Assembly (NCBI GenBank): GCA_009695535.1 | Contig: SHZQ01000001.1 | Coordinates: 1 to 42,782, forward strand | Origin: Methyloglobulus sp. | GTDB lineage: Bacteria; Pseudomonadota; Gammaproteobacteria; Methylococcales; Methylomonadaceae | Length of the DNA: 42,782 bases | Direction: 5' to 3' | In this document: one piece after another, positions 20,984 through 25,417 of the stretch | How positions within the stretch are numbered: the stretch's first letter is position 1 | How the letters are laid out: each line of letters opens with the position of its first letter | Notes under the pieces: generated by a model | The model's input: the letters and a program-made list of their open reading frames with translations, nothing else | Told to the model about the DNA's origin: nothing | Database searches by the model: none | Position numbers and translations under genes: made by a program

Positions 20984-21970
20984 TTACCAGTTAGATAGCT
21001 GTTTAATTTTTTCAAGTATATGTTTTAAATAAGTATATAGGTCTCTGGTTAATTCTCCATTTATTTTTACCCAAGCATGACCTGTCGCTGAAATTTGAAC
21101 AGTTTCTTTACCAATAGAAAATACTGTCAGTTTCAATGCGGTACTTTTTTCTACTTTTGGACAAGCTCCTTTCCCAAAACTTCTGCTACCCAACCAGAGT
21201 ATCTTTTCGCTTTTTGGGGTGGCGCACAGTAGATCCTCAATTGACTGTTGCTTATCAACAGTTGCAATCGTACCAACAGCTTGAGCGGTGATTACGCCGC
21301 TGTTCTCGTTGTTGATATAAAAAGGTTCGAACGGTTTTTCGGGATTCCATTCTGTCAGAGAAAATCGGAAAACTATGTTGGTATTGTTCTCTGGAATTAT
21401 CGTAACTGGAATTCCTGCCAGCTTATAATGCCAATTTCCGATCACTAAGCTATTTTTATCGTCTGAGTCATTGTTTTCTGTGGTTTTTACTTGGGCGATT
21501 TCAATTGCAATAGCCAAGCCGGCAGCCATTAATTTGAAGTCTGGCTGGGTTTTATTGGGGATTAAGTCAGGAGATAAGTAAAGCGCATTTGGCATAACCG
21601 TTGGTTTTCTAAGAGTAATCTTGATAAATGTTTTGCTGTCTTTGTTTTGTATCGTATTAAAGTTGATAGGTTGGGTACTGGTTGGTGTATCTGGAAGAAA
21701 GTGCTTCAGCAGGTTGGCCGTATTATCATCCAGCCTAGCCTTATCGAAATGGACTTGTATGGATTGGTTGGGGTTGCCAATATACTCAAAAAGTGTTTCG
21801 TTATCCCTGCCACTAATAATGCTGCCAAGCCATAATTTTTGGTTGATTGCTGTTTTAAGGGGGGCATGTTGGGCAATTCTCCAGCCTCTGGGATACAGGT
21901 ACAAGCATTAGGAGATAGTAAGTCCAAGCTAGCAGTAAGGGCAGTACGAATTTTTTTAGCCACGGGTTAT
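20984..21970 (-). pseudogene. Hypothetical secreted protein with disrupted 5' end
   Basis: About 290 open codons of unknown function. A signal-peptide-like stretch (WLKKFVLPLLLAWTYYLLMLVPVSQ...ENCPTCPP) lies in another frame and would join at the G6 run at 21859-21864; no intact start found. Confidence 0.5.
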
Positions 21971-22058
21971 TTTTAGCTGATTAATTATTTCAGTTGCTGA
22001 CCATTTGGGTTGATTCTTTTTGCTAGGGGGTATGGCAATCCTATAAAAAATACAGCGA

Positions 22059-23022
22059 TTATTCCTTGACCTCTACCTGTCCAGGTGAGAAAGCCACCAC
22101 CCAGTCTTTGTCGTTGTTGGTATACCAGGCGCGAACCTGTAATTGATGAATCCCTATCGAAGGTCGTTTTTGTGCTGTTTTGTCATCCCAAGTGAAGGCG
22201 GGGTCATCTTTGCCTATCCATTGCCCTGAAGTTTCATCAATCGAACGAAATGGGTCGTACACGTTTTTGTAAGCAATGCCCCGATCGAAATTGTGCCATT
22301 ACGGTTTTCTATGTTACGGAATTCTTCCTGCACTTTGTTAAATGATTTGTGGGAAAAATAGAAATGGTGCGCCAATTCACCTAGTTTTACGTTGATGCTG
22401 TCGGGGCCGAAATTAATTTGGTCAATTCCTATTGAGCCGACTGCTTTAGTGCCGCAGACAAACCCAAAAATTTTGGTAGGTATTAGTGTTGTAATGCCGC
22501 CGCTGTTACTGGTCGCATGTATTTCGATTATTGCCCGGACAGGTTTGTCGCCAAGTGTCTCGGGGAGTTTAAAAATCTTTAGTTGACGGCTAGTGGTCGT
22601 GATGTCTAGCTGATAATTACAAGACTTTCTATTATTAATTTGCACCCTAACCATTGCGAAACCTGGGCGACTTAGCTGGTAATCAATTGCTACAGGCCAT
22701 CCGCCTTGTATATAGCCCGCTATTTTCAGGTCACTGAAGTTGAAATGTTCTGGGACGATAGGGTCGTTGGCATCCCATTGTGCGTCTTTAGGGTTATTTG
22801 CATCTTCGGAGAAGGCTTCGTGAACAGGTAACCGATGAGAGCTGCTCCAACGGCTGCGCCAATGCCGATGCCAACTTGTTCCGGTGTGCTTAGACCGCCA
22901 CCTGGACAATTACCGTCACAAACTCGCGGTCTATTGCTTGCACACCCGGCCAGCATGGAGATGATTAGCCCTAAGGCGATAAGCTTTGAAACCCTAGGGT
23001 AATTACTACTTAAGTTATTCAC
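22059..23022 (-). pseudogene. Hypothetical lipoprotein with glycine-zipper-like helix, two frameshifts
   Basis: SD GAGGAG, GTG start, lipobox LAGC and GIGIGAAVGAALIG. Three overlapping ORFs join near 22810 and near 22265 (T5 run). Confidence 0.65.
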
Positions 23023-24196: not shown

Positions 24197-24225
24197 TTTA
24201 ACTCCAGGATAATATCTGCTATATT
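24197..24225 (+). promoter_or_regulatory. Probable sigma70 promoter for the DUF1097-like gene
   Basis: TTTAAC-17 bp-TATATT with an extended -10 TG. Confidence 0.45.
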
Positions 24226-24246
24226 CCCCCATGCTACGGGTTAAAC

Positions 24247-24336
24247 GGTGCTCGTGATCTAATCGTCAGGTAACATGGAAGCACCTCAGTGTGTACCTGG
24301 CTCAACAATTATAATGAGGTGAGTTTCGGAGAATTC
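24247..24336 (+). ncRNA. Candidate cis-regulatory RNA (riboswitch-like leader, class unrecognised)
   Basis: Stem GGTGCT-CGTG/CATG-GA-AGCACC; loop GTCAGGTA complementary to TACCTGGC (pseudoknot); alternative pairing CACCTCA/TGAGGTG; hairpin over the SD. Confidence 0.45.
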
Positions 24337-24338
24337 GC

Positions 24339-24860
24339 GTGGATAAACTAACAGCACTTTCTTTAAGCATTGGCGGTATCGCTGGTGTGGCAACATTTTT
24401 AGCCGTAGGTCCTGCCGCTGGCATCTTCTTTATTTGGGCGGCAACTATCGCTTGGGCGGCTTATTTCTTGCTGGGCGCTAACCAGGAAGCGGTTGTCAAT
24501 AACATTACCTGCGGTATTTTTGGTGTGTTCATGGCGTGGGCAACAGCGATTATGTTGACTGAAATTTCACCAACAACCATGTTAGGCTTCCCGTTTATGG
24601 CGGCATTTACCGTGTGTGCTGTTGTCGTGGTGATGTGTTTGGCTGCTAATATTCCCCAGCTTGCGACGATTCCTTGCAGTGTTTTGGGTTATTCTTCAAC
24701 CTTCGCCTATTTGTTACAAACTCCTGATAAATTAAATAAAGATGTGTTGCTGGGCTTTTCTATGAGCAATCCTTTATTGGTGATTTCCATTTCTATTGTT
24801 GTGGGTACTTTTTGCGGTGTTTGGTCAGCACAACTTAGCGGTAAATTGACGACCAAGTAA
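24339..24860 (+). CDS. DUF1097-like integral membrane protein
   Basis: Very hydrophobic 173 aa with WAATIAWAAYF, GIFG and IPCSVLGYSSTFA; GTG start. Confidence 0.75.
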   Translation: MDKLTALSLSIGGIAGVATFLAVGPAAGIFFIWAATIAWAAYFLLGANQEAVVNNITCGIFGVFMAWATAIMLTEISPTTMLGFPFMAAFTVCAVVVVMCLAANIPQLATIPCSVLGYSSTFAYLLQTPDKLNKDVLLGFSMSNPLLVISISIVVGTFCGVWSAQLSGKLTTK

Positions 24861-24882: not shown

Positions 24883-24918
24883 AAAGACGGTTTTCGGTAA
24901 CACGAAGCCGTCTTTTTT
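24883..24918 (+). terminator. Rho-independent terminator
   Basis: AAAGACGGTTTTCG-N6-CGAAGCCGTCTTT followed by a T-tract, 23 nt after the stop. Confidence 0.8.
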
Positions 24919-24954: not shown

Positions 24955-25218
24955 TTAGCGTTGCTGCATCCAACGAAAATACGTCTTACCATCATCACAC
25001 ACCCAGCTTGAGCGTTGTACGCCGTATTCCGTTTTACGTAACACGCAATGATTTTGCTCTTTGAACTCATTCCAATTGCTGTCATCTGGATTAACGCTGA
25101 AATACAAGTTGCTTAATATAATAATAGCCAAGGCGAACCCGCCGTAAAGTACAAAATCCAACGGCTTTTTGGGCATATAACGCCGGATTAATGGTGTTAT
25201 CTGGTCTGTGTTCATCAC
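24955..25218 (-). CDS. Small single-pass membrane protein, hypothetical
   Basis: SD AGGAGG; one TM helix; C-terminal WNEFKEQNHC...WVCDDGKTY with a Cys pair. Confidence 0.7.
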   Translation of the reverse strand: MMNTDQITPLIRRYMPKKPLDFVLYGGFALAIIILSNLYFSVNPDDSNWNEFKEQNHCVLRKTEYGVQRSSWVCDDGKTYFRWMQQR

Positions 25219-25390: not shown

Positions 25391-25417
25391 TTAGCACTCG
25401 CAAAGGAAGAGTGCTAG
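25391..25417 (+). promoter_or_regulatory. CIRCE operator (HrcA binding site)
   Basis: TTAGCACTC-N9-GAGTGCTAG versus consensus TTAGCACTC-N9-GAGTGCTAA. Confidence 0.95.

Follow-up and report, generated by a model that had tools for sequence, protein, structure and literature searches.

Comparative evidence for a pseudoknot in the leader of DUF1097 genes of methanotrophic Methylococcales

INTRODUCTION

In the window (the whole 42,782-nt stretch of Methyloglobulus sp. contig SHZQ01000001.1 that was analysed), a gene for a DUF1097 (YcdZ-like) membrane protein is preceded by a leader for which the original prediction, made from the sequence alone, proposed an unrecognised, riboswitch-like pseudoknot. 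The question raised by this locus is whether such an RNA exists and, if so, how it folds, how widely it occurs and what it does to the gene downstream. The identity of that gene is confirmed: its product scores 94.2 bits against PF06496, for which the cut-off is 24.6 (Pfam, E = 1e-26), and its closest protein relatives, at 94–97% identity, come from Methylococcaceae, Methyloglobulus and Methylomagnum. Moreover, every sequence string on which the prediction drew is correctly located, and the RNA is indeed unmatched in Rfam 15, which gives no gathering-level match in the window and, at E up to 10, nothing over the leader. Here, we argue that the leader RNA is, with high confidence, a real and apparently uncatalogued cis-acting pseudoknot, albeit with a fold and a presumed mode of action that differ from those first proposed.

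RESULTS

The leader adopts an H-type fold next to the ribosome-binding site

The proposed fold is an H-type pseudoknot of 57 nt, lying 17 nt 5' of the DUF1097 start codon in the window (Table 1). Its first helix, P1, is a hairpin of 12 pairs with one bulge (−12.4 kcal/mol in the window), and its second, P2, pairs the P1 loop sequence CACCUCA with UGAGGUG; across homologues, P1 has 12–13 pairs and P2 has 6–7, with an L2 of 0–1 nt. Elements of both helices had been noticed in the original prediction: GTCAGGTA/TACCTGGC, assigned there to the pseudoknot helix, is real and forms the outer part of hairpin P1, whereas CACCTCA/TGAGGTG, assigned to a mutually exclusive helix, is itself the true pseudoknot pairing and is compatible with P1. 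Taken by itself, the 126-nt region folds no better than its shuffles (z −1.09); the support for the RNA is comparative.

Table 1. Features of the DUF1097 locus in window coordinates
Feature	Position	Strand	Remarks
Predicted sigma70 promoter	24198..24225	+	TTAACT-16-TG.TATATT; −35, 24198-24203; extended −10, 24217-24225
P0, optional 5' hairpin	24235..24256 (24235-41/24250-56)	+	Sequence-variable; in the minimum free energy fold of the window
P1 5' arm	24265..24277	+	A24273 bulged in the window's clade
L1, GAAG	24278..24281	+	3-6 nt in homologues; first base G in 67/79
P2 5' strand, CACCUCA	24282..24288	+	Inside the P1 loop; P2 about 95% paired in homologues
L2, 1 nt	G24289	+	A in 48/79 homologues
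P1 3' arm	24290..24301	+	
L3	24302..24314	+	A/U-rich; length and sequence vary
P2 3' strand, UGAGGUG	24315..24321	+	Strong Shine-Dalgarno-like; ends 17 nt from the start codon (13-21 nt in homologues)
Clade-specific RBS hairpin, loop CGGA	24319..24338 (24319-26/24331-38)	+	Has 3 nt in common with P2
Proximal Shine-Dalgarno, GGAG	24328-31	+	Within the RBS hairpin
DUF1097 (YcdZ-like) membrane protein gene	24339..24860	+	173 aa; GTG start; Pfam PF06496
Hairpin followed by T run, likely terminator	24883..24918	+	Read from the sequence; not listed by the terminator scan

Both helices are supported by compensatory change

Of 151 homologous loci, the best 80 were compared over the 170 nt 5' of the gene, and a CCUC...GRGG anchor was found at the right spacing in 73; the remaining seven comprise L060 (with a changed P2), L080 (degenerate), L075 (with an insert in L3) and four without the fold. 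In L060 and L113, the strands of P2 have been fully replaced, yet pairing is retained. The first covariation count, for which 69 sequences were aligned plainly with MAFFT, gave 86.4% of cells paired, compared with 31–41% in slid registers, and two-sided changes at 16 of 20 pairs. A further alignment placed 86 rows (one of them a false match and one partial) on a covariance model of P1 only, P2 being left out; in it, P2 was 95.4% paired, with two-sided changes at four of its seven pairs; P1, across the alignments, has 81.5–83.7% of cells paired and two-sided changes at 11–12 of 13 pairs. G-U pairs are frequent in the alignments and are retained.

Changes were also placed on a protein tree of 79 sequences, from which the false row, the partial row and five rows without a protein had been dropped. 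P1 shows 18 two-sided and 140 one-sided pair-keeping changes against 105 breaks, and slid registers give only 4–6 two-sided changes; for P2, there are five two-sided and 28 one-sided pair-keeping changes against 14 breaks, with 0–2 two-sided changes in slid registers. Four of the five two-sided events in P2 sit on one pair; the central four pairs hardly vary and, consequently, contribute little covariation. Among the same 79 sequences, the CCUC/GAGG core of P2 is 95–100% conserved, while the sequence of P1 varies freely, and conservation above 95% is confined to paired P2 positions; all unpaired columns stay below 90%, the best being the G of L1 (Table 1), a loop whose composition otherwise ranges from purine-rich to all-U. 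The fixed core pairs could reflect tertiary or ligand contacts. Upstream of homologous genes, conservation and covariation are thus seen in both P1 and P2, in favour of a structured RNA.

A metagenome pattern that required P2 and the Shine-Dalgarno (SD) sequence, and not P1, found at least 120 loci (about 250 estimated), of which 118 were scored. Among the matches listed, 30 of the 118 are at DUF1097 genes, and every one of these has a P1 score of 9–13 out of 13; at 87 of the 88 loci that are not at DUF1097 genes the P1 score is 6 or less, and at the lone exception, L174, the next gene is cut by the contig end. A 158-nt MITE-like insert, which has inverted termini and a duplicated TAA, lies in L3 of one species (L075 and L097:1540–1700, G130:C102). 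The insert is predicted to fold up by itself with P1 intact, so that the pseudoknot may survive. Separately, L117 (G003) keeps the P2 loop word and has lost its partner strand, as a decaying copy.

The element accompanies DUF1097 throughout Methylococcales

DUF1097 is encoded in 45 of 151 Methylococcales genomes. The first covariance model matched 21 genomes of this order, with a single copy in each and all 21 located 5' of DUF1097, and the shape descriptor found the fold in 30 of the 45 DUF1097 leaders (0–4 in shuffles), one of the others having the L3 insert and 14 being without such a fold. The hosts include the cultured genera Methylomonas, Methylobacter, Methylovulum and Methyloglobulus. 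Neighbouring genes vary widely over 109 loci (ZIP and GDT1 transporters, transaldolase, HslV, HU, RimO-like and others), suggesting that leader and gene move as one unit. Where the DUF1097 gene lies directly behind HU or ZIP, the pseudoknot is kept without a promoter or P0, which points to a post-transcriptional role.

In the window's own genome (G000), the DUF1097 leader is the best pseudoknot among 658 gene starts (scoring 42; the next scores 36 and shuffles score below 38). A general genome-wide element was rejected, as the bulge-tolerant descriptor found no second copy among these starts; a bulge-free first descriptor had given 11 matches against 4–8 in shuffles and missed the window's own copy. 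In other Proteobacteria, 28 DUF1097 leaders were examined and the pseudoknot was not found: five of these leaders scored 30 or more with the shape descriptor, and an alphaproteobacterial extension was rejected because none of the 17 leaders tested beat its shuffles (p 0.05 or more). In the alphaproteobacterial family f58, the leaders at L147, L443, L447 and L448 share a 5' hairpin rich in GC and an A/C-rich linker leading to the SD, but no pseudoknot. One strict pattern gave no match in viral contigs. A peroxiredoxin leader, L381:1504–1575 (−) (G148), has the same shape; it was set aside as it is confined to one genome and the shape is absent from 21 other peroxiredoxin leaders. This leader precedes a PRK13189-type peroxiredoxin and adjoins transposase-like ORFs, and two peroxiredoxin leaders of one other genus present a candidate of different shape.

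With respect to transcription, the predicted sigma70 promoter would place the start near 24231–24233. The site that had been proposed is present and, although it scores no better than chance in a consensus scan (four such sites versus 5.4 in shuffles), conservation speaks for it: of 71 distinct leaders, 22 have a narrow extended −10 pattern 5' of P1, compared with 2.65 in shuffles, and the window's own variant of it is present in close kin. Of the 21 usable homologues with an extended −10, 19 have a sequence between promoter and P1 that folds more stably than when shuffled, and P0 is missing where the DUF1097 gene comes straight after another gene. In one Methylomonas strain, contigs from the RNA runs of a single study span leader and gene unbroken, are continuous with the upstream gene and show no start site. 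Given the putative terminator, the DUF1097 gene in the window would be monocistronic.

The same shape precedes secreted DsrE genes in a second family

The model was also run class-wide over 150 genomes, where it matched G621, a member of another gammaproteobacterial family, f170, with E = 8.6e-4; the match precedes a secreted DsrE-family gene, at the same distance as in the DUF1097 leaders. Other class-wide matches, namely, L277 and L278 (E 0.04–0.05) and 18 weak R3 matches in 17 of the 150 genomes (G621 aside), were rejected for want of a convincing pseudoknot. Within f170, the model matches four of 12 genomes and five of 27 DsrE loci, one of which, L291, precedes a frameshifted DsrE gene. 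The 3' arm before these genes is near-identical to that of the DUF1097 leaders, and L286 has a P1 of 11 pairs and a compensatory U-A in P2. By descriptor, eight of 26 DsrE leaders in f170 have the shape, and in four of these eight the P2 sequence is a different one; among 28 DsrE leaders from other families, none has it. Loci at which the shape was noted in f170 are L283–L286, L291, L292, L301, L302 and L305. It is common to two groups of secreted DsrE paralogues, one with a different P2. Other DsrE paralogue leaders of f170 (L298 and L300; L287, L290, L296 and L297) have different conserved words and hairpins near the ribosome-binding site (RBS), possibly representing further motifs.

DUF1097 is absent from five f170 genomes, and G000 has no match to the f170 DsrE. 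The f170 DsrE genes are flanked by NrfD-, CobB- and Fe-S-family genes, an arrangement that we take to resemble the end of a reverse dsr operon; f170 members are, therefore, likely to be sulfur oxidisers.

The predicted DUF1097 structure weakly resembles an anion channel

A PDB sequence search found no solved relative of DUF1097. An AlphaFold model (pLDDT 96, with 97 sequences as input) gave no significant match in Foldseek (E 3.1, TM 0.54), whereas a wide structural search with VIA-align placed the membrane domain of ALMT1 first (Z 9.4, rmsd 3.8, 155 aligned residues) and had ALMT9 and ALMT12 in the top five, with RnfA tied second (Z 8.3). AtALMT1 (7voj), AtALMT9 (8hiw) and GmALMT12 (7w6k) are the best whole-length structural matches, with Z values of 9.4, 8.3 and 7.3 over 151–155 of the 173 DUF1097 residues; identity is, however, 8–11% at an rmsd of 3.8–4.7, Z is under the level that is safe for helical bundles, and the cytosolic domain of ALMT is missing in DUF1097. 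The weak resemblance of the model to ALMT anion channels, which part of PMC8644676 places in the aromatic-acid-exporter family, is, for a helical bundle, to be read as a lead only. Elsewhere, the order cobW-DUF1097-nitrile hydratase occurs at three loci, and DUF1097 also lies behind amidase, aquaporin-family or amidohydrolase genes (contexts at L141, L142, L143, L153, L152 and L148), surroundings that hint at amide or acid transport.

The sections of PMC3454398 and PMC11036815 that concern E. coli YcdZ/NupT, of the same Pfam family, describe a predicted inner-membrane transporter, with hints of nucleoside or pyrimidine transport, and a gene whose control is predicted to be exerted at the DNA level via CRP-CytR; in the methanotrophs, by contrast, the gene has a leader RNA. 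Our best guess is that DUF1097 is a small-solute or anion channel.

DISCUSSION

The element among known RNAs

Beyond the window, Rfam gave nothing at the leaders of 10 DUF1097 homologues and eight further loci at E up to 1, and no RNA family except tRNA near 20 other DUF1097 loci. The preQ1-I/II, SAM-II, SAM-V and guanidine-III riboswitches are H-type pseudoknots that hide the SD in P2. The DUF1097 leader is like them in its compact H-type fold, its A-rich L3, the purine-rich P2 strand by the start codon and the transporter-like gene; it differs in its long P1 (12–13 pairs), its unconserved loop bases and the lack of an Rfam match, and in that the hidden SD-like strand lies 13–21 nt upstream, a second and correctly spaced SD being found outside the fold. 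The pocket bases of preQ1-I/II and queuosine genes are both missing here: the loops vary, and the genes are DUF1097 or DsrE-family. Nor is there support for the kinship to ZTP (pfl) or SAM-II that had been read from echoes of their consensus words, which are not conserved in homologues: CGTGA, CAGGT and CCTGG lie in the freely varying arms of P0 and P1, GATCTAATCGT lies in the unconserved linker between P0 and P1, the L1 pocket word of SAM-II/SAM-V is absent, and none of these classes matches in Rfam.

Those portions of the literature on DUF1097, ycdZ, DsrE RNA motifs and methanotroph riboswitches that were available to us contain no such motif; the main texts of PMC11109978, PMC8632094 and PMC5737381 hold no passage on DUF1097 or Methylo- names, and lower-ranked motifs in their supplements could include this RNA. 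The element is a well-supported and apparently uncatalogued cis-acting RNA in environmentally important methanotrophs, and at 57 nt it is small enough to be probed directly. What survives of the original prediction is a conserved, covarying, pseudoknotted leader; its stated fold and its two-state model do not.

A proposed decoy Shine-Dalgarno sequence

Our preferred reading, to which we would give somewhat less than an even chance, is that the pseudoknot controls translation by masking a strong but misplaced SD, the folded state being ON. The 5' strand of P2 reproduces six of the seven bases of the G000 16S anti-SD (taken from the 16S 3' end on contig C65). In computed duplexes with the anti-SD, the 3' strand of P2 reaches −11.5 kcal/mol in the window, compared with −6.6 kcal/mol for the proximal site; among 54 distinct leaders, it is the stronger of the two in 44, with means of −10.2 kcal/mol for the strand and −6.5 kcal/mol for the site. 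Because this strand ends 13–21 nt from the start codon, it is too far away to serve it. The word GAGGYG is not enriched at a P2-like distance in G000, where it occurs at three of 658 starts, equal to a control window. With P2 formed, the decoy would be hidden and the 30S subunit would load at the correctly spaced GGAG (ON); with P2 open, the 30S would be captured by the decoy at a point too far 5' (OFF), and, in the window's clade, release of GUG would let the RBS hairpin grow from five pairs to eight (likewise OFF). That hairpin is computed at −6.7 kcal/mol with eight pairs and at +1.0 kcal/mol with the five that are left when P2 forms. It is the RBS-burying hairpin of the original prediction, real in the Methyloglobulus-like clade (−7.2 kcal/mol) and strong in leaders of that kind only: an SD-burying hairpin across the whole family was rejected, being no better than shuffles. 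Such wiring, in which a pseudoknot hides an SD-like word upstream of the real RBS, is unusual and would be a little-described way to set translation.

Several computed values count against the decoy. SD accessibility rises only from 0.67 to 0.74 with P2 over 54 leaders, and a shuffled P2 strand also gives 0.67; in the window itself, the SD tetramer is computed to be less accessible with P2 formed (0.79 falling to 0.54), because GGA sits in the hairpin loop. In divergent copies, the P2 strand has weak or no computed affinity for the anti-SD (L060, +1.7; L111, −2.7; L286, −4.2; L292, −6.1; and L302, −6.5 kcal/mol), showing that the decoy is not universal. A uORF begun from the P2 strand was also considered and rejected: a start codon follows 3–9 nt behind in 38 of the 54 leaders, mostly the TTG of TTGGAG, and is absent in 16 and in the window. 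As for what would open or close the decoy pseudoknot, the variable loop bases make a protein (S1 or a dedicated binder), or ions or temperature, a more likely trigger than a small-molecule pocket. Whichever it is, the switching signal would point to the job of DUF1097/YcdZ.

Possible ligand binding or a possible static element

Two further readings are, in our estimation, equally likely, and each is distinctly less probable than the decoy. The first is a translational riboswitch, as originally claimed, in which a small molecule or ion would bind where L1, L2 and the CCUC/GAGG core meet, stabilising the pseudoknot and changing translation, the regulated product being a probable anion channel in the case of DUF1097 and a secreted DsrE-type protein in the second family. 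A compact H-type fold adjoining the RBS of a transporter-like gene, a covarying leader structure tied to a consistent gene, the single copy per genome before that same gene in Methylococcales, the P2 core held constant over a freely varying P1 and the near-identical 3' arm in f170 are all consistent with a ligand. The loops, however, are not what would be expected of a binding pocket: the unpaired columns, including the G of L1, which is the best, and the A of L2 (Table 1), all fall short of 90%, in an L1 that may be all-U, whereas complex RNAs, as part of PMC5737381 has it, usually show several 97%-conserved nucleotides. Furthermore, the shape is retained in paralogous DsrE leaders whose P2 sequences differ, standing there before an unrelated gene family; a family-wide alternative fold or expression platform was not found over shuffles, and the phylogenetic range is narrow.

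The second is a static element: a standby site or enhancer that binds S1 and raises translation, or a barrier that shields the mRNA 5' end. In plasmid repZ/repA, with their activating pseudoknots, and in stabilising upstream SD elements, a pseudoknot or SD-like word 5' of the RBS aids translation or mRNA life. The DUF1097 leader has its pseudoknot and SD-like word in the same place, just 5' of the true RBS; no leader peptide, antisense RNA or long-range pairing is seen in it. S1 binds H-type pseudoknots in tisB, rpsO, tmRNA and SELEX ligands, according to part of PMC7708055, and the leader is like the S1-dependent tisB standby site and rpsO in placing an H-type pseudoknot beside A/U-rich single strands (here, L3 and the spacer), where it may affect 30S loading. 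The same source, in that part, sets the tisB element about 100 nt upstream of a sequestered RBS, whereas the methanotroph fold abuts one that is mostly open; moreover, the methanotroph loop copies the 16S anti-SD, and a role for S1 is putative here. Preservation of shape through changes of sequence and the fixed distance to the start codon speak for a static element. It leaves unexplained, however, the anti-SD/SD sequence of P2 in most copies; the fold is tied to two gene families rather than being general in G000; and the RBS is already open in most homologues, with the mean accessibilities given above (0.67–0.74, 54 leaders).

A combination of the decoy with ligand binding is less probable still, and we regard it as rather unlikely: a ligand-locked decoy-SD class of riboswitch in methane oxidisers and likely sulfur oxidisers, in which a loop mimicking the anti-SD would turn on DUF1097, as a minimal bacterial channel of the ALMT-like kind, or a secreted DsrE. 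If true, its ligand, perhaps a small anion, an acid or a sulfur species, would reveal which substrate the orphan YcdZ proteins handle.

Very little can be said for a DNA-level feature, in which P1 would be a palindromic operator and P2 would reflect an SD-like word conserved upstream. P1 does form an inverted repeat, 40 nt 3' of a conserved promoter, but G-U pairs are common and kept, a pattern that largely refutes this reading; in addition, the one-sided changes counted on the tree retain pairing while the sequence of P1 shifts, P2 covaries across 25–30 nt and the element persists without the promoter. Finally, the fold first proposed, a ZTP- or SAM-II-like aptamer whose stem GGTGCT-CGTG/CATG-GA-AGCACC (24247–24256/24274–24285) would compete with the CACCUCA/UGAGGUG helix, is scarcely credible, as that stem makes all 10 pairs in the window (at −10.1 kcal/mol, P1 being 2.3 kcal/mol more stable) but only 1–6 of the 10 in the 12 closest homologues examined, has an ensemble probability of about zero and is a coincidence of one genome, with no Rfam match near the leader.

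Other features of the window

Three ORFs of 306, 231 and 98 aa at 20984–23022 (−) have no Pfam match; the 231- and 98-aa ORFs lie in different frames and overlap, and the shorter one starts like a lipoprotein, so that the pair is perhaps a frameshifted gene. An 87-aa ORF at 24955–25218 (−), likewise with no Pfam match, is conserved 3' of DUF1097 in 12 Methyloglobulus-like loci. At 25391–25417 (+), there is an ordinary CIRCE-like inverted repeat (0.02 expected), which we take to have one mismatch to the consensus and to precede hrcA-grpE-dnaK-dnaJ-like genes.
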